DNA of 64,000 bases from positions 9,379 to 73,378 of the forward strand of contig CALFUK010000016.1 in assembly GCA_937929945.1 (NCBI GenBank), read 5' to 3'. Position 1 is the stretch's first letter; every line of letters starts with the position of its first letter. The notes under the pieces were generated by a model. It was not told where the DNA came from, ran no database searches, and saw nothing but the letters and a program-made list of their open reading frames with translations. Positions 1 to 55,957 of the stretch are shown here, piece after piece. Both the position numbers and the translations under genes were made by a program. This DNA comes from an uncultured Saprospiraceae bacterium (GTDB lineage Bacteria; Bacteroidota; Bacteroidia; Chitinophagales; Saprospiraceae).

Positions 1-1231
1 GGCACGCCTCCTCTACGTTGATATAGCCGTCCGTGATGATCACTAAGGATCGTGAGCCATGCTCATCATGCTTAGGTATGGCCATGGCTTTCTGTACAGC
101 AGATAGAAGCTCTGTGCCACCTCCTCCGTACTCGCTGGTCAGCAGCCTTTTGGCTGATTTGATATTGGCTGAGCTAGCAGGGATCGCCTGGGGCGCGAGC
201 ATTTTAGAATTGCCAGCGAATAGGACGACATTAAAATAATCCTCTGGTCGCATGGTGCTTAATAGATCATCCATCAGCTGCTTGGTGACCTCGATGGGAA
301 AGCCGTGCATGGATCCAGATACGTCTACAATAAAAATAAATTCTCGAGGTGTCACCTGGTCGATAGACACTCGCACAGGTGGCTCGATCAGTGTCAAAAA
401 GAAGTTTTCATCTTTTGATTCGTAAAAGAGTGTACCGCTTTCCATTCGCTCACCAGCCAGCTGGTAGGTGAATATGAAGTCTTTATTGCCTTTCGACTTA
501 TCGCTATCTTTCAGCTTGACTAGCAGCCGGCTTTGATCTTTATAGTCGGCATTCACTTGGTGGCTGAGGCACTCTGACTGCTTGATGGGCAGGGGAGACC
601 TGATCTCCATCTGTAGATCAAACTGATATGGCGCTTCCTGGCCTTCAGCTAGATAGGGATTCTGAATAGTGTTGTGCTTAGCTGGTGATGAGCTATATCT
701 GGGACCGACTACAGTCGGATAGACGAATGTATAGACACCACTTTCAGGCAGCAAAAATTCATTGTACTTCATGAGAATATCGATGGATTCTCCAGGCGAG
801 ATGTTTGCGACATTCATCGTGAAGACATTCGGTTTATCTTGCTGCAGAAGACTGGCTCGCTTGCCTTCACTTTTAGCTTGCTCATAGTTTTGCTTGGCTT
901 TTCGTTTTTCCTGGATTTCAGCTGTGATCACCCGATCGCCGATGTGCATCTCCATATGATAGACAGCTGCTCTGGTAGATGTTGGAAATACATAGATGGC
1001 CTCGATGGCCTCAGTACCGTCATTCTGATAGCGCTGGCGCAGTGTGACATCAGCTATAGGCCCTGCCAGCGTAGCTGATACATTTGTAGACAGTAGTGAG
1101 AATGATCCTGGGATCGTCTTCTGACTAATGATGTCGAAGTATGGACTTTCATTATGATCACGATCTTGCTGTGCAAAAGATAGAGTAGGCACGATGGTAA
1201 CCAGTAAGATGACTCTTAGTATCGCATTCAT
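1..1231 (-). CDS. VIT (vault protein inter-alpha-trypsin) + von Willebrand factor A domain secreted protein, 5' part only (gene runs off window start)
   Basis: Reverse translation from ATG at about 1229-1231 gives MNAILRVILLVTIVPTLSFAQ (signal peptide), then VIT-like region, then FIFIVDVSGSMHGFPI (vWA MIDAS DxSxS motif). Not in ORF track because the stop lies left of position 1. Confidence 0.7.
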   Translation of the reverse strand, partial: MNAILRVILLVTIVPTLSFAQQDRDHNESPYFDIISQKTIPGSFSLLSTNVSATLAGPIADVTLRQRYQNDGTEAIEAIYVFPTSTRAAVYHMEMHIGDRVITAEIQEKRKAKQNYEQAKSEGKRASLLQQDKPNVFTMNVANISPGESIDILMKYNEFLLPESGVYTFVYPTVVGPRYSSSPAKHNTIQNPYLAEGQEAPYQFDLQMEIRSPLPIKQSECLSHQVNADYKDQSRLLVKLKDSDKSKGNKDFIFTYQLAGERMESGTLFYESKDENFFLTLIEPPVRVSIDQVTPREFIFIVDVSGSMHGFPIEVTKQLMDDLLSTMRPEDYFNVVLFAGNSKMLAPQAIPASSANIKSAKRLLTSEYGGGGTELLSAVQKAMAIPKHDEHGSRSLVIITDGYINVEEAC

Positions 1232-1328
1232 TTGTTTTATGTTTTAGGGCTGAACGGCTATCTGCGAGTAGGAAAGAATGCGCGAACATAATAGGCATCT
1301 TAGCTATCTCTATCATAGACGATTCATG
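1232..1328 (-). promoter_or_regulatory. Copy A of conserved ~95-nt leader element ending at the vWA-gene ATG (box CATGAATCGTCTATGA + ...GATAGCCGTTCAGCCCTAAAAC..ATG)
   Basis: 16-mer TCATAGACGATTCATG (plus strand 1313-1328) is identical at 8374-8389. The 3' part aligns with copies B/C. Contains mini-ORF ATG AAT CGT CTA TGA. Confidence 0.6.
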
Positions 1329-1673: not shown

Positions 1674-3422
1674 TCAGGATTCATCTATGATTTTAATCCT
1701 GATGAGCACATGAGTGCCCTTTTTTTCTCCATTTGTCGAGATAGAATAGTGCTCTCCATCTTGGTCGTTGATGTAATTGAGCCTTTTTTCTGTGATATAC
1801 ATTCCCAGTGAATCTTGCTGTGTTTGCTTCTCATCCATTCGTATGCCTGCCCCATTGTCTTCCACGGAGACATTGATGTAGTCACCTTGCTGATCCATTG
1901 ATATCTTGATCATGGATTGAGTTTTTATGTTGGCGATTCCGTGTACGATTGCATTTTCAACAAATGGCTGAATCAATAGTGGACTTATATGGACCTGAGA
2001 TTGGTTTATGCTGGGTTGAACTGTGATCGTGTAGGAAAATTTATTCTTAAATCTCAATTGCTCTAGCTCTAAGTAGCTATGGAGCATGGTGACTTCTTCG
2101 GCGATAGACACTTTTGCTTTGACGGAAGCATTCAGATTTTGCCTGATCAGCTTGGCAAATCTTGACAGATAGTCCATTGCTTTATCTTTCTTGTTATCCA
2201 TGATAAAATTCTGAATCGAGTTCAAACAATTGAAGATAAAATGGGGGTTCATCTGAGCTCGCAAGGCAGACCTTTCTAATTCTTTAATTTCTTGATCGAC
2301 TTGTAGCGCCCTTTTGATTTTACTATAGCCCTGCACGATCAGGTAGCCACATAAGCAGAGTAACTCAATGAACTGGCCAATCATCGCACTGTAGCGAAAC
2401 CCACTACCATACTCTAAGAACCCGATGAATGACAAGGGCTTAATCACAAACCCTATGACGACTGACACATAGCTGATGAGCAAGATCTTATAGAATCCAG
2501 GAGAGGTCGCATAGAAGCAAGCTCTGATCAATACGTATAAGTAAGCACATATTCCTAAAATGGATAGTGCATTATAGAATCCGATGAATGCACTGATATG
2601 CAAGTCATATACGCCTGTCAGTACCATGCCAATCATGATGATACAAGTGAGACTCAGTGCCTTATGCGCGTAGTCAAAAATAAGCTTGAGTCTCGTGACG
2701 GGAAGTAAGTGATGGCCTATCTGTATTAGAGCTAACAGACCTGCGAGAACAGACACATACAGTGGTTTTCCTCCAAGTGAAAATGGGAGATGCACACCCT
2801 GCTCGCGCAGATGAAACACATTAGAAAAGATAATGTAGAGACAGAGCCACAAGTAAATGCTTTTGCCAGAGACAATGAGAGAGATTAAGGCGTAAATGAA
2901 AAACAGAAAAAAGGCACCAAAGAATAAGCCATTGATAAAATTGCGAGAAAGAAGTAGTTGATGAAACTCCTCTGACTCAAACACATAACATGGAATATTA
3001 AAGTCAGGTCTGTTTTTCACATCTAATTGTAAGAGTACGGATTCATGCTGCTTGACACGGAGATCAAGGAAATTTTTTGCTCCCGCTAGTTCGTTACTTT
3101 GGTACAGCTGCTGCTCAGTACCATCTTCATAGGTAGCTCGGAGTGAAAACTCATCGACTAAGTGATTATCCAACACCAAGGTGATGTCTTCGATCGAATC
3201 TTGATTAAGGATGTAACAATAGTATGACTTATGGTTATCATAATCCTCTGATTTTACCTGGGTCAGCGCTTCGATCCCTTCGGCAGATTGATCAATAAAT
3301 AGAATCCGCATTGTCTGATCATCGACCTGAGTGATGACATTCCGATTGAGTTCTGTCGGTGTATACTGAGCGATGGACGGGAGAGTTATACCAGCCCACA
3401 GGCAGCACAGGACAAACCACAT
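1674..3422 (-). CDS. Sensor histidine kinase, 7TMR-DISM extracellular/7TM sensor + LytS/YehU-type His_kinase + HATPase_c
   Basis: Signal peptide, seven-helix hydrophobic block, NPHFIFNCLNSIQ H-box typical of PF06580, C-terminal HATPase (DNGAGI). No response regulator adjacent. Confidence 0.8.
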   Translation of the reverse strand: MWFVLCCLWAGITLPSIAQYTPTELNRNVITQVDDQTMRILFIDQSAEGIEALTQVKSEDYDNHKSYYCYILNQDSIEDITLVLDNHLVDEFSLRATYEDGTEQQLYQSNELAGAKNFLDLRVKQHESVLLQLDVKNRPDFNIPCYVFESEEFHQLLLSRNFINGLFFGAFFLFFIYALISLIVSGKSIYLWLCLYIIFSNVFHLREQGVHLPFSLGGKPLYVSVLAGLLALIQIGHHLLPVTRLKLIFDYAHKALSLTCIIMIGMVLTGVYDLHISAFIGFYNALSILGICAYLYVLIRACFYATSPGFYKILLISYVSVVIGFVIKPLSFIGFLEYGSGFRYSAMIGQFIELLCLCGYLIVQGYSKIKRALQVDQEIKELERSALRAQMNPHFIFNCLNSIQNFIMDNKKDKAMDYLSRFAKLIRQNLNASVKAKVSIAEEVTMLHSYLELEQLRFKNKFSYTITVQPSINQSQVHISPLLIQPFVENAIVHGIANIKTQSMIKISMDQQGDYINVSVEDNGAGIRMDEKQTQQDSLGMYITEKRLNYINDQDGEHYSISTNGEKKGTHVLIRIKIIDES

Positions 3423-5508: not shown

Positions 5509-5711
5509 GTATCAGATTTTAGGAGAAGGTAAGGAAACTATTAGAAAGTCTTAATATTCAGCGTGGGAACAAATCCAGTACTGAGATAGACTAATGGAAT
5601 TAGCATACATGTTTTTGATTAGCACTGTCTTCCTCTTCTCGTTTTCGGTTTAATTCTTCCTTGGCAACAAACTGTATTTTATCGTCCATGTATTTAAATC
5701 ATAAAGACATG

Positions 5712-8294: not shown

Positions 8295-8389
8295 ATGTTT
8301 AAATTTCAGGGTGAAATGCCTATCATCAAATAACTAAGTTAAATCATCCACTTGGGTGTCATAATTATCTGCGTCATAGACGATTCATG
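8295..8389 (-). promoter_or_regulatory. Copy B of conserved ~95-nt leader element ending at the M14 carboxypeptidase ATG
   Basis: About 85% identical over 95 nt to copy C2 upstream of the epimerase gene (48065-48160). Starts with CATGAATCGTCTATGA (mini-ORF MNRL-stop), ends GATAGGCATTTCACCCTGAAATTTAAAC-ATG. Confidence 0.65.
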
Positions 8390-13904: not shown

Positions 13905-14061
13905 TAGTTTACTTTGCCTTTTACCGCTTTGCTACGAATCCTCTGTGTCTCTGCCTGATGTTGATAGGCTATTGAAAGGGGGACTTGCTTACAGATATTG
14001 AAATCATTTTGGATATCCAGAAGCTTTAGTTCATAGTTGTTCTCTTTTGCAAAGTTGTCAA

Positions 14062-14108
14062 TAGAAAAAGCCCGATTACAAACAACTGATAGCTGAAAAT
14101 ATCGGGCT
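14062..14108 (-). terminator. Putative rho-independent terminator for the tandem lipoprotein genes
   Basis: Minus strand: GCCCGAT..(27-nt loop)..ATCGGGC followed by TTTTTCTAT. The loop is long, so moderate confidence. Confidence 0.35.
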
Positions 14109-14138
14109 TCTATACTCTTGTCATATCTATCCAGATGC

Positions 14139-14507
14139 CTATCTGATGTTTACTTTACGCTTCACTTCTTCTGTATTTCCTTCGTTATCAAATGCAGTGA
14201 TAACGATCTCGAGATCCTCGACTAGAGCTGCCATCGGGTTTAGGGTAATATCGAAATCGAAGTTTGCATTAGCTGTCCCTCCGCCTCGTAAAGTCTCATT
14301 TAGACCTAAACTGGCTACATTAAACTGTATACTGCTGACCTCCACATCATCAGTCACTTGGCAAGCAATGAAAATGGTATCACCAGGTGCAAATACTTGA
14401 CCATCAGTTGGCGAATTAACTGTAAGGGTAAGGCCACTGTCTCCACCACAAGATTGAAAGAAAAAGGCTGTGACACATAGGCTGAGGATTGCTACTACTT
14501 TGTTCAT
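14139..14507 (-). CDS. Small lipoprotein, paralog 1 of a tandem pair
   Basis: Lipobox FQSCGGDSG. About 55% identical to the adjacent 14543..14923 product (shared GDSGLTLTV.SPT.GQ.FAPGD, SSIQF). Confidence 0.55.
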   Translation of the reverse strand: MNKVVAILSLCVTAFFFQSCGGDSGLTLTVNSPTDGQVFAPGDTIFIACQVTDDVEVSSIQFNVASLGLNETLRGGGTANANFDFDITLNPMAALVEDLEIVITAFDNEGNTEEVKRKVNIR

Positions 14508-14542
14508 TTGTTTTAATTGTTTAGAGGTTTAAAATCGAGTGC

Positions 14543-14923
14543 CTATCTGATATTTATCTTACGCTTTACTTCTTCCGTATTCCCTTCATCATCAAATGAT
14601 ACAACTACGATTTCGATATCGTCCTCTAAGGGCGTCATAGGGTCTATCGTGACATTGAGTAGAAAGTCTTCTCTTTGATTGAGCATGCCTGGAAACGTCT
14701 CATTGATGCCTAATCTTGAAATGGTAAACTGTATACTACTGATGGCTACATCATCGCTTGTCGTGCCAGCGATCGGTATGACGTCACCTGGAGCAAACGA
14801 TTGACCTTCGGTAGGCGTACTCACAGTTAGGGTAAGGCCACTATCTCCGCCACAAGACTGCAAGAAAAGGACTGCGATACATAGACTAAGAATAGTGATT
14901 GCTTTGTTCATCTGTTTAATCAT
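14543..14923 (-). CDS. Small lipoprotein, paralog 2 of a tandem pair
   Basis: Lipobox LQSCGGDSG. Conserved 3' flank GCCTATCTGAT shared with paralog 1, indicating tandem duplication. Confidence 0.55.
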   Translation of the reverse strand: MIKQMNKAITILSLCIAVLFLQSCGGDSGLTLTVSTPTEGQSFAPGDVIPIAGTTSDDVAISSIQFTISRLGINETFPGMLNQREDFLLNVTIDPMTPLEDDIEIVVVSFDDEGNTEEVKRKINIR

Positions 14924-16522: not shown

Positions 16523-17755
16523 CTAATATAAGAAGCCAAAGAGCCATAGCGGAATCTGTCTTCCTCTACCTATTTCAATACCATCTGATGCAATTAGGTA
16601 ATCCTTGAGGTGTTTGACTTGAGTCGCTTTTTTATTTTTACCTCCTACCTCAATGGTGAGATAATCATCGACTAAGAAGTCGCCTTTAGTGGGCAGGCTT
16701 ACACCATGTTGATATTTTAATTGATTAAAAACAAAAGTCTCTCTGACATGCCCCAGCTCCGTATTATTCTCAGCAATGGCAAAGAGCAAATTTGTATTTT
16801 CAAGATATACTTTGTCAGGCTTTTGCAACATAGAAATGCCTTTTTGAGGGGTCGAAAGTAAGCTGACTAATTGTGCAGATTCTAGATAATGAAAGTAGTG
16901 AACCAGGATATTTCGATTGAGTCCGATGCGCTCACTCAGTTTTGAAATATTTGGTTTGAATGGGACAGAAGAAGATATCGCATAGAGTAGCTTCGCTATC
17001 TTAGTAGCATGAGTGACATTGTAGCCTTCCAAGTATTTCAGATCCACTTCCAGGATCATTTTGATGGTTTGATTTAGCTTGACACCATAGACCGCTGTAC
17101 CTTCTAAAAAGTAAGGATAGTATCCGTGACGGAGATAGTCTTGAAAAGCAGCTAATGGCTTGAGCTGCTTCACTATTTCTGAAGCAATAGTAAGGTGGTT
17201 ATCTAACAAATCAGATAGTGAATAGGTCCTGAAAGCCTTCCCTTGGGTAAAAGCTAGATACTCTCTAAATGATAAGCCCTGCATATGATAAATGACAGCC
17301 CTTCTGCTGAGATCAGCCTGCGCATTTAGAATTTGAATGATCGACGAGCCAGTAAATACCATATACAGCTCTGGATAGTAATCATAGGCATTTTTAATTT
17401 CGATTGACCAATTATCGTACTTATGGACTTCATCCAAGTAGAGGTATTTACCACCATACATGACAAAGCTTTCAATGAACTCTGTCAATTTGTGATCAGC
17501 AAAATACAAGTCATCTAAGTTGATAAAAGCGACGGACTCATTCAGCTCTCTATTTAGTTTGATGTGTTGCAGCAGCATCGTGGTCTTGCCAACACCCCTT
17601 GTTCCTTTGATGGCTATCAGTCGCTGACTCCAATCAATTTGGCCCATCAATTCTCTAGTAATTGAAGTGTTTATTTGATTGATTCTGACTTGGCTTCTGC
17701 GTAGTAAGCTATCCATATGATATCCGATAATACGAACAAAGTGAGCATTATGCAA
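16523..17755 (-). CDS. AAA+ ATPase, AAA_14 + DUF4143 (COG1373) family
   Basis: Walker A GTRGVGKTT, Walker B LYLDEVH. C-terminal DUF4143 region with a putative PD-(D/E)xK-like D..EVGGK. Confidence 0.75.
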   Translation of the reverse strand: MHNAHFVRIIGYHMDSLLRRSQVRINQINTSITRELMGQIDWSQRLIAIKGTRGVGKTTMLLQHIKLNRELNESVAFINLDDLYFADHKLTEFIESFVMYGGKYLYLDEVHKYDNWSIEIKNAYDYYPELYMVFTGSSIIQILNAQADLSRRAVIYHMQGLSFREYLAFTQGKAFRTYSLSDLLDNHLTIASEIVKQLKPLAAFQDYLRHGYYPYFLEGTAVYGVKLNQTIKMILEVDLKYLEGYNVTHATKIAKLLYAISSSVPFKPNISKLSERIGLNRNILVHYFHYLESAQLVSLLSTPQKGISMLQKPDKVYLENTNLLFAIAENNTELGHVRETFVFNQLKYQHGVSLPTKGDFLVDDYLTIEVGGKNKKATQVKHLKDYLIASDGIEIGRGRQIPLWLFGFLY

Positions 17756-22569: not shown

Positions 22570-23901
22570 ATGGACTTTAAGAGAGAAGCATTCGGACAGT
22601 TGCAAGCGTGGAAATCTAAAGCGCGACGAAAGCCCTTGCTACTGATGGGTGCTCGTCAGATAGGCAAGACCACCTTGCTCAAGGCTTTTGGTGACTCAGA
22701 ATATGAGCAACTTATCTACCTGAACCTAGAGCGGCAGCCAGAAGTGCATGCCTTTTTCACGGGCAGCAAGGACCCTAAATCCATACTGGATAAAATAGCC
22801 TTATTGCAAGGTCAGGAGATCAATGAGCACAGCAGTCTGCTGGTGATTGATGAGATCCAAGAGTGTAGAGACGCTCTGATCGCCCTCAAGTATTTTCAAG
22901 AAGAAATGCCAGAGATCCACATCATTGGGGCTGGCTCGCTTTTAGGACTGAGCCTGGGCAATAATCGATCCTTCCCCGTGGGCAAAGTGGAATTCTTGGA
23001 CATGTATCCGCTATCATTTTCTGAGTATTTGGCAGAGGCTGATCCTAAACTTTACCAAGCGTTTCATCATTATTTAGACACTGATGAACTGGAGCAGATA
23101 CCAGAGGCTTTCTTTCACCCCATGAATCAGGTATTCAAAGAATTTCTTCTTTTTGGAGGGATGCCAGAGGTGGCAGCGCTCTATCTCAATTCCAGGCATG
23201 TCTCAGAGGCACAGCAGGTGCAAGATCAAATCCTGAGGGCTTATGAGCTGGACTTCGTCAAGCACGCTGATAAGACGACGTCTACAAAAATCCAGCAGAC
23301 CTGGAATTCTATCCCCTCCCAGCTGGGCAAAGAAAATAAGAAATTCATCTACAAAGTGATACGCTCAGGGGCCAGGGCCAGAGAATACGAAGAAGCCATC
23401 CAGTGGCTGGTCCAGGCAGGACTTGTCTACAAGGTAGCGAGAGTAGAGAAAGCGGGCGTGCCACTCAAAGCCTATGAAGATGTTACAGCATTCAAACTGT
23501 ATCTATTTGAGACTAGTCTTCTGATTCGGCTGGCGGGTTTGGATCCAAAGACCTTCATTCAGGGAGATCAATTTTTTACAGAATTCAAGGGTGCTCTGGC
23601 AGAAAACTATGCAGCCCAAGCACTCCGGCGAACACTGGGACATGCTCCATACTATTGGACATCAGAAGGTAAGGCAGAAGTAGATTACGCCATAGAGCAG
23701 AGCGGGCTCTGTATTCCAGTAGAGGTGAAATCTGGTACAAATACAAAAGCAAAAAGTCTGGTAACTTACAGAACAAAGTATGACCCAAAAGTCAGCATCA
23801 GGATATCGAATCAGAATCTGGAGCTGAGGGATGGTCTGCTCAGTATCCCGCTCTTCTACGCGGAGCACTGCGACAGGATGATCAAAAAAGTATTAGGCTA
23901 A
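22570..23901 (+). CDS. AAA+ ATPase, AAA_14 + DUF4143 (COG1373) family, second paralog
   Basis: Walker A GARQIGKTT, Walker B LLVIDEIQ. C-terminal EVDYAI...IPVEVKSG resembling PD-(D/E)xK. Confidence 0.75.
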   Translation: MDFKREAFGQLQAWKSKARRKPLLLMGARQIGKTTLLKAFGDSEYEQLIYLNLERQPEVHAFFTGSKDPKSILDKIALLQGQEINEHSSLLVIDEIQECRDALIALKYFQEEMPEIHIIGAGSLLGLSLGNNRSFPVGKVEFLDMYPLSFSEYLAEADPKLYQAFHHYLDTDELEQIPEAFFHPMNQVFKEFLLFGGMPEVAALYLNSRHVSEAQQVQDQILRAYELDFVKHADKTTSTKIQQTWNSIPSQLGKENKKFIYKVIRSGARAREYEEAIQWLVQAGLVYKVARVEKAGVPLKAYEDVTAFKLYLFETSLLIRLAGLDPKTFIQGDQFFTEFKGALAENYAAQALRRTLGHAPYYWTSEGKAEVDYAIEQSGLCIPVEVKSGTNTKAKSLVTYRTKYDPKVSIRISNQNLELRDGLLSIPLFYAEHCDRMIKKVLG

Positions 23902-25689: not shown

Positions 25690-26005
25690 ATTAGCCTTCG
25701 CTCTGTGCAACTGGAATACTGTAAGCCACGGCGTGAGCTGCATTCAATAGGCTAAATAGATATACTTTTTACGCCAAGTTCTGGTATGCTGCAAGATCTT
25801 CCACGATGGGTTGATATGTGTCAAGAATCTCCTGAATCCAGAATTATTAGACTCATCTTGCCCTCCATAAAGTAGACGATGATGGATGTAGATTATATAA
25901 TTCGTATTTTGGATTATCTAATCATAATAATTCACAAACGTCAATGACAGAGATAATTATGTTTAGTTATTTACTGACAGGCATTGTGCCTCGAAATTTT
26001 AACTC

Positions 26006-26479
26006 ATGGAATTAAAGATAAACGGTAAGAACATTCAGGTCGATGTAGAAGAGCAAATGCCTTTACTCTGGGTGCTGCGAGACGAGCTCAATATGACAGG
26101 CACTAAGTACGGCTGTGGTGTAGCAGCTTGCGGAGCCTGCACCTGTCTTGTGGATGGTGTGGCTACGCGTACCTGCACCCTGGCGGTATCATCAGTGGTG
26201 GGCAAAGAGATCAAAACCATCGAGGGCATTGCGTCTGATGGACAGCTCTCAGCCGTGCAGAAAGCCTGGATACAGCACCAAGTGCCTCAGTGTGGCTACT
26301 GCCAGTCAGGACAGATCATAGCGGCAGAATCACTACTGGATGAAAAAGCTAATCCCACTGATGAGGACATAGACCAAGCTATGACTAATATCTGCAGATG
26401 TGGCACGTACCAGAGGGTGAGAGAAGCGATTCATACTGCTGCTATCTGGAGACAAGAAGAAAATTCCCTATTAGGATAA
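26006..26479 (+). CDS. (2Fe-2S)-binding small subunit of molybdopterin oxidoreductase (IorA/aldehyde dehydrogenase small subunit-like)
   Basis: Plant-type ferredoxin CGVAACGACTC and second cluster CGYCQSG...CRCGTY motifs. 157 aa. Confidence 0.85.
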   Translation: MELKINGKNIQVDVEEQMPLLWVLRDELNMTGTKYGCGVAACGACTCLVDGVATRTCTLAVSSVVGKEIKTIEGIASDGQLSAVQKAWIQHQVPQCGYCQSGQIIAAESLLDEKANPTDEDIDQAMTNICRCGTYQRVREAIHTAAIWRQEENSLLG

Positions 26480-36902: not shown

Positions 36903-37400
36903 ATGATTACAGCAAAAGTCAATGAAGCCTTACGGAAAGAGTTGGAGAATATCAGTGGGACATCATCAGATGGACAGGTAGCTGAGCCAATGGCCGCTTA
37001 TGGTATGACCATGAATAAGCTGCTGGATCAGAAGATGCTGCTGCTCTCCCTCATTGAGGCAGGAGTGAGCAGTCAGTTTTTTTTCACTCTCGTTGAGGAG
37101 AGCTCTTACAGTCTGACAGATTGGTGCCATGTCACTAATATTCCTTATCGCACTCTACAGCGCTACCAAAAAGATAATACCATGCTGAAGCCCATATACA
37201 CAGAGAAGATATTTGAATTTGTAGAAGTCGTCCAAAAAGGCGTAGATGTCTTTGGCAGCTCTGAGAAATTTGAGCGGTGGCTCTATAAGCCAAAGTTTAT
37301 TTTCCAGGATAAGCGGCCTATTGATCTACTCAGCAGCTCATTCGGTAAGGAGCTGGTCATGACAGAGCTGGTCCACATAGAGCACGGTATTTTTGCATGA
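36903..37400 (+). CDS. Type II antitoxin, Xre/MbcA/ParS family (DUF2384)
   Basis: C-terminal FERWLYKPKFIFQDKRPIDLLSSSFGKELVMTELVHIEHG matches the DUF2384 toxin-binding signature. 4-bp ATGA overlap with the RES gene. Confidence 0.75.
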   Translation: MITAKVNEALRKELENISGTSSDGQVAEPMAAYGMTMNKLLDQKMLLLSLIEAGVSSQFFFTLVEESSYSLTDWCHVTNIPYRTLQRYQKDNTMLKPIYTEKIFEFVEVVQKGVDVFGSSEKFERWLYKPKFIFQDKRPIDLLSSSFGKELVMTELVHIEHGIFA

Positions 37401-37858
37401 TTTGCTACCGATTGGCGAAGGCCCAATATAAGGATTCACTCAGTGGATATGGCGCCGCTCTGCGGGGCGGCCGATGGAATAGTGTGGGAGTAGAGATCAT
37501 CTATACAGCATCCAGCCGGGCACTGGCGATGGCAGAAATGTTAGTCCATATCGATGTGGAGGATGTACCTGATGACTACCATATGATGAGAATTGGCGTA
37601 CCTGATACGATAGCACGAAATATCATATCACAAAGTGATCTGCCTACTCACTGGAACAAAATGATCGAGTACCTACCGCTGTCAAGATCTCTGGGTGACC
37701 GCTTTATTAAAGATAAAAGATACGGCGTGCTCAGCGTCCCATCCGCAGTGGTCAAAGGCGATTTTAATATTTTAATTAATCCATATCATGAGGGCTTTTC
37801 GAAGATCGAAATCTTGAGTACGGAGCCATTTCCATTTGATCAAAGACTGTTCTGTTGA
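37397..37858 (+). CDS. RES-domain toxin (NAD+-targeting, ParT/MbcT-like)
   Basis: Conserved R (ALRGGRWN), E (ALAMAEMLVH) and S (VLSVPSAV) in canonical order. 153 aa. Confidence 0.75.
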   Translation: MICYRLAKAQYKDSLSGYGAALRGGRWNSVGVEIIYTASSRALAMAEMLVHIDVEDVPDDYHMMRIGVPDTIARNIISQSDLPTHWNKMIEYLPLSRSLGDRFIKDKRYGVLSVPSAVVKGDFNILINPYHEGFSKIEILSTEPFPFDQRLFC

Positions 37859-47816: not shown

Positions 47817-47969
47817 AAGTCAGTCTAACACGGAGCACTCCATAATAATTCCACAAGGTAATCTGGTGATTCAGTAGAGTCATATGCAACAGAGATGTAG
47901 CTGCTATTATTCACCTGGACTCAACAGCTTACTCCGAATAATTAATTACATTTAAATAATAAGCTAAGC

Positions 47970-48067
47970 CATATGAAACGTCTATGACCTAGATAACCAA
48001 GACATCCAAGTAGATGATTAAACTGAGTTATCTACTGATAGGCACTTCGCCTTGAAATAAAAACACA
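47970..48067 (+). promoter_or_regulatory. Copy C1 of conserved ~95-nt leader element (tandem with C2)
   Basis: ATGAAACGTCTATGAC...GATAGGCACTTCGCCTTGAAATAAAAACAC, about 80% identical to C2. Mini-ORF MKRL-stop. Confidence 0.6.
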
Positions 48068-48160
48068 TGAAACGTCTATGACGTAGATGATTAAGACACC
48101 CAAGGGTATGATCGAACTTAGTTATTTGCTGATTGGCACTTCGCCCTGAAATTATAACAC
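48065..48160 (+). promoter_or_regulatory. Copy C2 of conserved ~95-nt leader element, ends on the dipeptide-epimerase ATG
   Basis: ACACATGAAACGTCTATGAC...GATTGGCACTTCGCCCTGAAATTATAACAC-ATG. About 85% identical to copy B at 8295-8389. Confidence 0.65.
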
Positions 48161-53412: not shown

Positions 53413-55590
53413 TCAAAGCACTAATAAGCCCTGATGGCGCAGTGCGTCCATGGGCCGATCATACCAGAAGGAGAGAAAGTCGGCGTGCTCTTGCTCATAG
53501 CTTTTTCTGAATTCCTTCATAGTGATGCTTTGCCCATGAGTAGCTGATAGCTTTATTAGCGTTTTAAGCAGCCATTCACCTGGACCCTGTTTTATTTTTA
53601 TCCGCTCTTGGCTCTGTCTATCATACACCTCGAATCTCATGATGCCATCAGCTATGGTAGCCTCCCCGACTGACCCGATCCATACCAAAAGGGCACTAGG
53701 CCTGAGCCCCACTTCAGGGACCTCGATCAGGCAGGACTCTATAAAATCTGTGGCTACACTGGTCTCTGGTATTTTGAAGTCAAACCATTCTTGCAGCGGA
53801 AAATCAAGGCAAACACCATGCATATAGTTATACAGTGATTTCTTAAGCCCATAGCTGAATTGATCATGATCGATGCCCGTACGATCTGTGAATGCCACTT
53901 CATTATCCGCAAAGCTGACTGCCTGTGGATGAGCGATCACACCAAAAGCTTCTGGCTCCATACCCACTGGACTGTGCGCCGTCATAGCGAACTGATGCCA
54001 GAACCCTGAATGGAGCACACCCAACTCAAACAACTGTCTGACCATCTCCAGGCTATCCACTGTCTCTTGTACGGTCTGTGTGGGATACCCGTACATCAGG
54101 TAGGCGTGTACCATGATACCAGATTCTGTAAAGTGGCGAGTCACTTGAGCTACTTGCTCTACAGTGACTCCCTTCTGGATAAGCGTTAGTAATCGGTTAG
54201 AGGCTACCTCCAAACCTCCAGATACGGCGATGCAGCCAGACGCCTGCAGCAGCCGGCAGAGATCATAGCTAAAGCTTTTCTCAAATCGAATATTGGTCCA
54301 CCAGCTGACCTGTAGCTCACGAGCTAATATCTCTAAGGCCACAGCTCGCATCAATGCTGGAGGAGCAGCTTCATCCACAAAGTGAAATCCGCGCTCACCT
54401 GTCTGAGCTATGATGGTCTCCATGCGGTCTACGATAAGGCTGGCGGTGATCGGCTCGTATAGCTTGATGTAGTCCAGTGAGATATCACAGAAGGTGCACT
54501 TACCCCAGTAACAACCGTGAGCCATGGTCAGCTTATTCCATCGGCCATCACTCCACAGGCTGTGCATGGGATTAGCCATTTCGATCACGGAGATGTATTG
54601 GTCCAGATGCAGGTCACTGTAGTCTGGCGTGCCCAGGTCAGCCTGCTTATAGTCTTGACGCAGGGATTCATTATGGTAGATCACTTGGTCTTCGACCTTG
54701 AGAAATGTGCGCTTATACAGCTTGTAATTTGGGTTTTGGGGGCTGGGATCCAGCACGTGGCTGATGAGTATTTCTATTGGCAGCTCGCCGTCGTCCAGGG
54801 TGATGTAGTCCATGTAGTCGAAGACTCTGGCGTCAGTGACTGAGCGCAGTTCTGTATTGGGGAAGCCTCCGCCCATCGCGATCTTAATCTCTGGATGAAT
54901 GCGCTTGATGTACTGAGCACACCGAAAAGCACTATACAGATTACCTGGAAAGGGGACAGACAGGCAGACTAATTTGGGCCGATGTTCTTCGATAAGCTCT
55001 TGTACGATTGGCAGGGTAAACTGATCGATGAAGCTCTCAGGACCTTGTAGTTCTTCATGCAGCTCATCAAAGCGATGGGCGCTCATGCCCAGTTTCTCTG
55101 CGTATCTGCTGAAGCCAAAGTGTGGGTCGAGGCAGGCTTTGATAAAGTCGGCGATGTCTTCTAGGTAAAGTGTGGCCAGGTACTTAGCTTTATCCTGGAT
55201 GCCCATACTACCGAAGGCCCACTCCAAGTCTTGCAGCTGAGTGAATCGGCTGGCCTGTGGCAGGTACTGCTCGGAGCAAATCAGTCTCGCGAGGGTCATC
55301 TGTTTGCCTTGTAGAAATGAGATCACAGAGCTAATGGTCTTAAGGTAGCTCTCTCTCAGATGATATATCCGGATGCTATTCTCATCTTTAATCGTCGATC
55401 TGCGCTCAGCCTCACCAAAGACTGTCTGTAAGCCATCAGAAGAAAATAGTGCGATGGTGACGTCGATCCCCAAATCAGCCTGATGAGCACTGATGCCTTT
55501 CGTATTGAGGAATCCTTTCAGATAGGCTGTTGCCGGATAGGGCGTGTTCAGCTGCGTGAAGGGAGGCGTGATGAGGAGTACGTCTTTCAA
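53413..55590 (-). CDS. B12-binding-domain radical SAM protein (725 aa), TTG start
   Basis: N-terminal B12-binding-like LLITPP...ATAYL fold, rSAM cluster motif GCYWGKCTFC (CX4CX2C as read). 32-nt gap to the downstream flavoprotein gene. Confidence 0.7.
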   Translation of the reverse strand: MKDVLLITPPFTQLNTPYPATAYLKGFLNTKGISAHQADLGIDVTIALFSSDGLQTVFGEAERRSTIKDENSIRIYHLRESYLKTISSVISFLQGKQMTLARLICSEQYLPQASRFTQLQDLEWAFGSMGIQDKAKYLATLYLEDIADFIKACLDPHFGFSRYAEKLGMSAHRFDELHEELQGPESFIDQFTLPIVQELIEEHRPKLVCLSVPFPGNLYSAFRCAQYIKRIHPEIKIAMGGGFPNTELRSVTDARVFDYMDYITLDDGELPIEILISHVLDPSPQNPNYKLYKRTFLKVEDQVIYHNESLRQDYKQADLGTPDYSDLHLDQYISVIEMANPMHSLWSDGRWNKLTMAHGCYWGKCTFCDISLDYIKLYEPITASLIVDRMETIIAQTGERGFHFVDEAAPPALMRAVALEILARELQVSWWTNIRFEKSFSYDLCRLLQASGCIAVSGGLEVASNRLLTLIQKGVTVEQVAQVTRHFTESGIMVHAYLMYGYPTQTVQETVDSLEMVRQLFELGVLHSGFWHQFAMTAHSPVGMEPEAFGVIAHPQAVSFADNEVAFTDRTGIDHDQFSYGLKKSLYNYMHGVCLDFPLQEWFDFKIPETSVATDFIESCLIEVPEVGLRPSALLVWIGSVGEATIADGIMRFEVYDRQSQERIKIKQGPGEWLLKTLIKLSATHGQSITMKEFRKSYEQEHADFLSFWYDRPMDALRHQGLLVL

Positions 55591-55957
55591 TGATCTGATG
55601 AATAAGTGTCCAATATAGATTGACTTTTCAAATGTCTAGAGTTTTGCATGAAATACCTGAGAGCAAAATGACTAAGTTTAATCTACTACTTGAGAATCAT
55701 ACACATTCATACCAAATGCGACCCCTACTCACAAATGCATTTTGGATTCGCTTAAGGTTTTTTCGATGCTGGCTGGCTATATTTATCCATGGGTCAGAAG
55801 CTATGATCACGATATAAATGTCGCAGGCTCTATGATAGGGATAAGCCTATATCTGAGTCAAGCCGACGACAAAACCTATCGTATATTTCATCCATAGACT
55901 GAAATTCCTAAAACAGTCTCTGAAACAGCTTATCTAGTGACTATAAAATTATAACCT

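Follow-up and report, generated by a model that had tools for sequence, protein, structure and literature searches.

The 64-kb window analysed here, a stretch of 64,000 nucleotides of contig CALFUK010000016.1 from an uncultured Saprospiraceae bacterium, contains a dispersed repeat of about 94 nt, the copies of which lie in sense orientation at the 5' ends of genes and mostly stop exactly at the start codon. The repeat is probably a lineage-specific, non-autonomous interspersed element that resembles miniature inverted-repeat transposable elements (MITEs), fits the description of a 'putative mobile promoter/leader' family and has spread through the genome of this Bacteroidota bacterium. This reading is favoured because the unit is short and non-coding, its copies have diverged, one locus carries a head-to-tail pair and another a decayed relic, related organisms retain an empty site, the family looks confined to one lineage, and the genes behind the copies are unrelated. 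The conserved ends of the unit, which enclose a variable middle, are a further trait of repeat families. An earlier note on this DNA had described four of the copies as a shared, dispersed and undescribed leader unit abutting start codons, a description that is supported by the present analysis, and one of the roles it had considered, that of a small mobile cassette, comes close to what the evidence favours.

Copies of the repeat and the empty site in relatives

Searches with a sequence profile and a covariance model (CM), which covered the 64-kb window of this genome, yield six copies of 73-96 nt at five loci, and all three forward frames of the repeat are closed. Copy A (1232..1327, minus strand; 96 nt) is full-length and divergent (CM score 84 bits, E=5e-19) and ends on the ATG of a VIT-vWA gene (1231-1229), while copy B (8295..8388, minus strand; 94 nt; 115 bits, E=7e-27) ends on the ATG of an M14 carboxypeptidase gene (8294-8292). 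Copy C (25933..26005, plus strand) is internally shortened to about 73 nt and ends on the ATG at 26006; it was recovered with an nhmmer profile built from the four original copies (E=1.6e-7) and scores 45.5 bits with the CM (E=4.5e-9). Copies D (47973..48066) and E (48067..48160), both 94 nt long and on the plus strand, are the first and second unit of a head-to-tail pair, the latter of which ends on the ATG of a dipeptide epimerase gene (48161). Finally, copy F (55632..55727, minus strand) is a decayed relic that has kept the sense orientation and is found by the CM at E=0.025; its alignment score against copy B (z=8.2) exceeds those of all 300 shuffles, and 38 nt separate its 3' end from the downstream gene, which encodes a B12-binding radical-SAM protein and has a predicted TTG start (55590).

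Copies A, B, D and E, the four reported earlier, lie at the coordinates given for them and are present far above chance, and each of them ends exactly on a gene ATG, as had been claimed. The starts themselves are credible, given that the M14 and VIT proteins begin with signal peptides and the N-terminus of the epimerase is identical to that of its orthologues. The ATG-to-ATG length of the unit is exactly 94 nt in three of these copies and 96 nt in copy A. Copies B and E, for which an identity of about 85% had been stated, are 84% identical, the other pairs among the young copies (B, D and E) reach 79-80%, and copy A is 63-65% identical to these three. In BLAST alignments, the corresponding values are 84.8% over 99 nt for B and E, 80.6% over 98 nt for B and D, and 82.5% over 103 nt for D and E. 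A constant distance between the conserved left box and the ATG had also been proposed; the distance measured is indeed 79-81 nt, which merely follows from the repetition of one unit.

When the loci are compared by BLAST together with 400-nt flanks, similarity is found inside the element only (E 1e-21 to 1e-27), whereas the flanks and the coding sequences are unrelated. The loci are therefore not segmental duplications of one another, the case in which the earlier note would have given up its regulatory interpretation. An origin of the resemblance in chance or in segmental duplication, in favour of which only the A/T-rich composition of leaders can be cited, is refuted by these E values, by the way in which similarity stops at the element borders, and by the shuffled controls, which support the copies.

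The most direct evidence for insertion comes from seven contigs of two related organisms, the epimerases of which are 88-89% and 84% identical to the protein of the window; the best protein matches of the window as a whole are found in Saprospiraceae, Cytophagales and Flavobacteriia, and a type-9 secretion sorting domain is present. The relatives have the same gene order, namely an arfB-like RF-1 gene, the epimerase, DUF1611 and a 197-aa gene, and their spacer in front of the epimerase runs straight from ...AAGCCATC into ATGAAAATC, which amounts to an empty site in seven of seven contigs. The arfB-epimerase spacers align with the window up to ...AAGCCAT(C), after which the relatives read ATGAAAATCAC (ATGAAAATCACTTATGAA), whereas the window reads ...AAGCCAT, then ATGAAACGTC at the head of a first 94-nt unit, ATGAAACGTC again at the head of a second, and only then ATGAAAATCACTTATGAA, so that it holds 2 x 94 nt extra. 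Both kinds of site, filled and empty, are resolved to the base, and on this alignment the two units are inserted exactly at the start codon of the epimerase. Since the element is absent in two independent relatives, an insertion in the lineage of the window is more parsimonious than repeated precise deletion. Similarly, the element is absent at the loci of two M14 orthologues (78% and 69% identity), of which the more similar has an upstream region too diverged to define an empty site base by base. The best match of the VIT-vWA protein is only 50% identical, and hence no orthologue is available for a second empty site. As a separate observation, the VIT-vWA gene (2-1231, minus strand) has best matches of about 50% identity compared with 70-89% for neighbouring genes, and it may be recently acquired or fast-evolving.

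Boxes, palindrome and the junction with start codons

The unit consists of the box CATGAAWCGTCTATGA, about 50 nt of sequence, the box GATAGGCAYTTCRCCCTGAAAT, an A-rich stretch ending in AACAn, and the ATG. Three exact occurrences of CATGAAWCGTCTATGA and one with a single mismatch (TATGAAACGTCTATGA, copy D) are present, and a search that allows 3 mismatches returns 5 matches, one of them unrelated, against a mean of 1.34 in shuffles; GATAGGCAYTTCRCCCTGAAAT has three matches with at most one mismatch and none in shuffles. In a MAFFT alignment, the block ATGAAnCGTCTATGAnnnAGAT is invariant across copies A, B, D and E, and the ends of the element are CGTCTATGA on the left and CCCTGAAAT..AACAy on the right. 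Copy C departs from this pattern in its left box (CACAAACGTCAATGAC), which lacks the upstream ATG.

The first ~77 nt form an imperfect palindrome with outer arms TGAAnCGTCTAT and ATAGGCAnTTCA and an inner hairpin of AGATAATTA and TAGTTATTT, the loop of which varies in length. Three paired segments can be distinguished: P1 joins TGAA with TTCA or TTCG, P2 joins GTCTAT with ATAGGC, and P3 joins (C)AGATAATTA with TAGTTATTT(G) around a loop of 4-26 nt. The shortest of these loops belongs to copy C, which has a central loop of only 4 nt and a perfect hairpin, AGATAATTA-tgtt-TAGTTATTT, while copy A keeps a long hairpin despite its different sequence. In the four full copies, standard pairs occupy 86% of the cells, compared with 30-49% when the partners are slid. 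In a structural alignment of all six copies, which was made by hand and is biased by construction, every copy forms 14-20 of the 20 pairs, and five of the pairs carry double changes, for example TGAA/TTCA to ACAA/TTGT in copy C. The palindrome is real; it may function at the level of RNA or of single-stranded DNA, or as a pair of protein-binding sites, and co-variation of the arms between subfamilies would be equally expected from co-evolution with a transposase. Of five copies, three fold better as the sense than as the antisense strand, a result that is not decisive. The last ~21 nt (CCCTGAAAT..AAACAy), which lie outside the palindrome, are A/U-rich and free of AUG. The idea that the hairpin hides the upstream AUG and keeps this tail open was considered and set aside, as the accessibilities from the partition function are equivocal.

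The repeat stands out by its junction with the gene. At four of the five loci the 3' end of the element falls base-exactly on the ATG, and each of the six copies precedes a gene and shares its orientation, the order across the window being - - + + + -. The element is bounded by a short direct repeat, ATGA(A)(A/T), of which the right one is the gene's own start codon. Copy A has ATGAAT on the left and ATGAAT at the gene start, copy B has ATGAAT and ATGAGA, copy C has CACAAA and ATGGAA, and the pair D-E has ATGAAA at its left, middle and right positions; the two units of the pair share one ATGAAA, the 3' junction of D being the 5' box of E. The end repeats of A and D-E behave as a duplication would, and those of B and C are degenerate. 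The left repeat is also part of the palindrome and forms the start of a four-codon mini-open reading frame (ATG-AAW-CGT-CTA-TGA, encoding MKRL or MNRL), which had been pointed out earlier together with an ATGA..ATGA repeat, and both are present in the four copies reported at the time.

Within the window, ATGAA occurs 214 times inside open reading frames (ORFs), about 38 times in non-coding sequence away from starts (elements excluded) and 8 times at starts. Starts thus make up 8 of the ~46 sites outside ORFs, which corresponds to a chance of ~0.17 per locus if occupancy were random. Either the sequence that is targeted extends beyond ATGAA, or insertions have been retained only where they lie close to a start. 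The base-exact junction with start codons is an unusual and so far unexplained feature, and, of all the features, it alone might lead on to something new.

Promoter context, distribution and downstream genes

At the epimerase locus, the promoter-like motif AATTAATTACATTTA (47940..47954, plus strand) lies in front of the pair and contains TAcaTTTa, which can be compared with the Bacteroidota -7 box TAnnTTTG. At these coordinates, AATTAATTAcATTTA is the only block that is conserved in the arfB-epimerase spacer of all relatives (L006, L009, L020, L021), the spacer being otherwise diverged, and this motif is retained in the window upstream of copies D and E. AATTAATTAcATTTA is probably a shared promoter that serves either the epimerase operon or the arfB gene, which is divergent. 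The position of a native promoter-like motif upstream of the insertion suggests that the element would be transcribed as nearly the whole 5' untranslated region (UTR). Within the element itself, no sigma-70-type promoter and no terminator is predicted in gene orientation across the epimerase locus, the one that was scanned, and TAnnTTTG has no match within 260 nt upstream of the start of any element-bearing gene, element included. These promoter scans address sigma-70-type sequences and TAnnTTTG, and alternative sigma factors are outside their reach. A TTATTTG segment does occur within the element, and it is not conserved in copies A and D. With respect to translation, initiation in Bacteroidetes is set by mRNA structure and by the nucleotides near the start, without Shine-Dalgarno pairing, and AUG is depleted from -21 to -1 (PMC6847099).

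The family looks lineage-restricted, since it is absent both from the contigs of relatives and from large collections. About 70 kb of relatives' contigs gave zero matches with the CM run without filters and with nhmmer, where ~6-7 would be expected at the density of the window. A scan of 185,579 species, one genome each, with a box pattern returned chance matches only, as did scans of JGI metagenome contigs with a two-box pattern and of IMG/VR viral contigs with the box pattern; matches in these large collections were vetted by reading or with the CM. In addition, blastn found no match among PLSDB plasmids, and Rfam 15 has no match in the window at the gathering score, with a single spurious snoRNA match on the opposite strand at E<=10. 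As far as such patterns can tell, the element would be either restricted to this lineage or variable at the positions that the patterns require. The statement of the earlier note that no known riboswitch or promoter explains the unit agrees with the lack of an Rfam family and of a sigma-70-type consensus in gene orientation at the epimerase locus.

The genes behind the copies had been named correctly by the earlier note, and Pfam assigns Peptidase_M14 to the gene after copy B and VIT and vWA domains to the gene after copy A, while copies D and E precede an MR_MLE-type dipeptide epimerase followed by DUF1611. Copy C stands before the gene of a Fer2_2 2Fe-2S subunit, and the next gene encodes a molybdopterin-binding (MoCoBD) subunit. 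The proposal that the unit marks a regulon of secreted peptidases and murein-peptide catabolism is not borne out by these assignments. The functions are mixed, as they include an oxidoreductase operon and a radical-SAM protein, and the VIT-vWA protein is no peptidase; moreover, an S9 peptidase and a penicillin amidase in the same window lack the element, and so do the relatives' orthologous epimerase and M14 genes. A tabulation of downstream functions and a CM search of related sequences, both of which had been suggested as checks of that proposal, thus gave mixed functions on the one hand and no copies in ~70 kb of relatives' contigs on the other. The weak relative that had been suspected before the S9 peptidase (5509-5530) is at chance level (z about 1), with no nhmmer or CM match.

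Two further candidates on the minus strand were rejected as copies. A 5'-truncated fragment at 14508..14556 (GATAGGCACT ... AAAACAAATG), which ends on the ATG of a Big_7 lipoprotein gene, is not significant (CM E=6.5). The region 14139-14923 (minus strand) holds two tandem paralogous Big_7 lipoprotein genes, both of which start MNK..ILSLC..QSCGGDSGLTLTV, and GATAGGCACT and AAAACAAATG fall in their 35-nt spacer and in the end of the upstream gene; the resemblance to the right part of the element is without statistical support. The second candidate, a marginal CM match at 14034-14131 (E=0.3), is a GC-rich hairpin with a T run (GAAGCCCGAU...AUCGGGCUUUUU) and no copy of the element, and is probably the intrinsic terminator of the lipoprotein genes.

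Several neighbouring genes deserve mention. A sensor kinase of the 7TMR-DISM/His_kinase (LytTR-type) kind is encoded at 1674-3422 (minus strand), between the S9 peptidase and the VIT gene, and no LytTR regulator stands beside it. A relative (69% M14 identity) has M14, a LytTR response regulator and this kinase in that order (L012 8704-11210). The LytTR regulator gene seems to have been lost or moved in the window, where the S9 peptidase occupies that position. The neighbouring kinase prompted the idea of a LytTR operator in the element, which was set aside, as inspection by eye, without a formal scan, revealed no LytTR-like direct repeats, and there is no response regulator nearby. The B12-binding radical-SAM gene behind the relic (53413-55590, minus strand) has TTG as its first possible start, with an upstream in-frame stop inside the tail of copy F, and the insertion of the relic may have reshaped the 5' end of this gene. 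Elsewhere in the window, an overlapping gene pair at 36903-37858 (plus strand) encodes an Xre-like antitoxin (Xre_MbcA_ParS_C) and a RES-domain toxin, and two AAA_14/DUF4143 ATPase genes lie on opposite strands less than 7 kb apart (16523-17755, minus strand; 22570-23901, plus strand).

Competing explanations and known systems

If the repeat is a mobile element of this kind, its arrival at a gene can be pictured as follows. Integration would proceed via the ATGAA core, which could serve as a target-site duplication, as a recombination core or as the microhomology of a copy-paste reaction. The element would come to lie downstream of the native promoter-like motif and would form almost the entire 5' UTR, and its AUG-free, A/U-rich tail would replace the native translation-initiation region with one that Bacteroidota ribosomes, which do not depend on Shine-Dalgarno pairing, might use. 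Insertions at position -1 could be tolerated and retained because the tail of the element would supply what the ribosomes need. The palindrome may fold as a hairpin at the 5' end of the mRNA, or in single-stranded DNA during mobilisation, and any common regulatory input would be a by-product of the shared sequence, not the reason for which the genes are grouped. A more specific proposal is that of a mobile 5' UTR that homes to start codons, a cassette that integrates at ATGA(A) starts via its ATGAA core, regenerates the start codon and brings along both an initiation region independent of Shine-Dalgarno pairing and a 5' hairpin. We put this forward tentatively, as a possibility that we consider more unlikely than likely by a wide measure.

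Several observations weigh against the repeat being a mobile element of the proposed kind. No transposase or recombinase gene is present within the 64-kb window, and no autonomous partner was found; the window is also a limited extent from which to survey the copies of a genome. The inverted repeat is imperfect, ATGAATCGTCTATGA matching the reverse complement of TGATAGGCATTTCAC at ~10 of 15 positions, and its right arm is set back ~21 nt from the right end, which is no textbook MITE architecture. The left ATGAAW may belong to the element and not be a true target-site duplication, since copy B keeps ATGAAW though its gene starts with ATGAGA. In addition, a preference for ATGAA together with the purging of insertions in ORFs does not by itself account for start-codon hits at four of four loci, with ~0.17 for each. 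As for the structure, the covariation among four sequences is not significant (71 of 500 column shuffles reach the observed value), the folding energies are only weakly better than those of shuffles (z -0.7 to -3.3), and the accessibility of the tail and start codon is equivocal. Finally, copy A, with an overall identity of 63%, has an unchanged 16-nt left box, which could instead reflect constraint at the individual loci, where the box would have a function.

One alternative is a genuine cis-regulatory leader, either an RNA that binds a protein or a ligand, or a DNA operator with the palindrome CGTC-TAT-GACG at its centre. Its genes would respond to one signal, and it would have been recruited to each of them for the advantage of co-regulation, with mobility as no more than the means. 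We regard this as unlikely, although several observations speak for it: ATGAAnCGTCTATGAnnnAGAT is 100% conserved in four copies although overall identity drops to 63%, every copy is sense-oriented and promoter-proximal, the hand-made structural alignment has its five double-changed pairs, three of the five loci encode extracytoplasmic or peptide-related proteins, and a LytTR-type sensor kinase adjoins copy A. However, a leader maintained for regulation accords poorly with its absence at the relatives' orthologous loci and in every large collection scanned, with the mixed functions downstream and the neighbouring peptidases that lack it, and with the missing Rfam match. The covariation falls short of significance, and the pattern of conserved ends is equally expected of transposon subfamilies, while the tandem pair and the decayed relic resemble the dynamics of repeats. 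Control by translation of the four-codon mini-ORF, an upstream ORF (uORF) acting as an attenuator on the downstream gene, is very unlikely. ATG-AAW-CGT-CTA-TGA is intact in four copies, but its ATG is missing in copy C (CACAAACGTCAATGAC) and in relic F, the simplest account of ATGAAW is a duplicated start-codon target, no regulatory-codon signature is seen in the peptide, and neither a terminator nor an anti-terminator was found at the epimerase locus, the one scanned, so that this part of the earlier note is not supported.

As a mobile promoter in the strict sense, the element would bring a transcription start of its own, perhaps one recognised by an alternative or extracytoplasmic function (ECF) sigma factor, and would activate the genes behind it. 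The copies fall within the sequence definition of putative mobile promoters, the element always points into a gene, and insertions are retained at 5' ends only. We nonetheless judge this explanation quite improbable, given the absence of a sigma-70-type match in gene orientation at the epimerase locus and of TAnnTTTG upstream of the element-bearing genes, the lack of conservation of the internal TTATTTG in copies A and D, and the native promoter-like motif that still lies upstream of the epimerase. Integron attC sites and invertons were also considered and rejected, as the genes keep their chromosomal synteny with the relatives, neither an R''/R' core nor a recombinase was found, and just ~50 bp separate the inverted repeats.

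If the repeat is indeed a non-autonomous interspersed element, annotation and interpretation are altered more than biology. The shared motif would be unsuitable for inferring a peptidase or murein-peptide regulon; at the same time, the locus would offer a clean natural example of a whole 5' UTR replaced by mobile sequence in a phylum in which ribosomes ignore Shine-Dalgarno sequences. It would also provide a test case for the minimal needs of a Bacteroidota translation-initiation region and for the spread of promoter-proximal repeats. Should the homing to start codons prove true, each insertion would exchange a gene's entire leader in a single event, and the targeting of translation starts at base resolution would represent a new target specificity and a new route to the rewiring of expression.

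The element can be compared with several known systems. Like riboswitches and the other structured leader RNAs of Rfam, it would be part of a 5' UTR and combines a hairpin with conserved boxes on either side; unlike them, it is without an Rfam match, lacks conservation at orthologous genes, precedes heterogeneous genes and looks confined to one lineage. The ERIC/IRU repeats of enterobacteria and the Correia repeats (CREE/NEMIS) of Neisseria are short, dispersed, imperfect palindromes in transcribed intergenic DNA, which form RNA hairpins and can alter the expression of neighbouring genes. They have terminal inverted repeats and a TA duplication, and they are found in both orientations and at both 5' and 3' ends of genes. 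The element shares with them the short, non-coding, imperfectly palindromic unit in dispersed copies, whereas it is asymmetric (a palindrome followed by a 21-nt tail), occurs in sense orientation only, at translation starts, and has an ATGAA end repeat.

The PATEs derived from IS200/IS605 and the REP/REPIN sequences, which depend on Y1 HUH transposases, lack clean terminal inverted repeats, are rich in hairpins, insert in an orientation-specific manner beside a short target and may form tandem arrays. The element is likewise asymmetric, inserts orientation-specifically beside a short motif, and has small hairpins (CGTC-TAT-GACG and GGCA..TGCC) as well as an ATGAA flank. In contrast to these systems, no TnpA, Y1 or RAYT gene is seen in the 64-kb window, the orientation of the element follows the genes and not the replication strand, its hairpins are short, and its target is not a known one.

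The best fit is provided by putative mobile promoters (PMPs), families of which are defined by stretches of at least 50 nt with at least 80% identity that lie 5' of genes with non-homologous coding and upstream coding sequences (Matus-Garcia, Nijveen & van Passel 2012, PMC3488235). PMPs are stretches of 50-100 nt within one genome that are often species-specific, and one family is conserved from about -5 to -120 (PMC3488235). The BLAST alignments between loci show such a stretch in the window (at least 50 nt, at least 80% identity, non-homologous genes), and the element resembles PMPs as a similar sequence directly upstream of non-homologous genes that is lineage-restricted. It differs from them in its base-exact junction with the ATG and the ATGAA direct repeat, and in the empty site of the relatives, which proves insertion; in addition, no promoter is recognised inside the element, which may be a mobile 5' UTR instead. 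The element is not a textbook MITE, because its inverted repeats are imperfect with an internal right arm, its end repeat is possibly its own, and no transposase is known for it. To conclude, it fits best as an additional repeat family of the already known PMP/MITE-like type.

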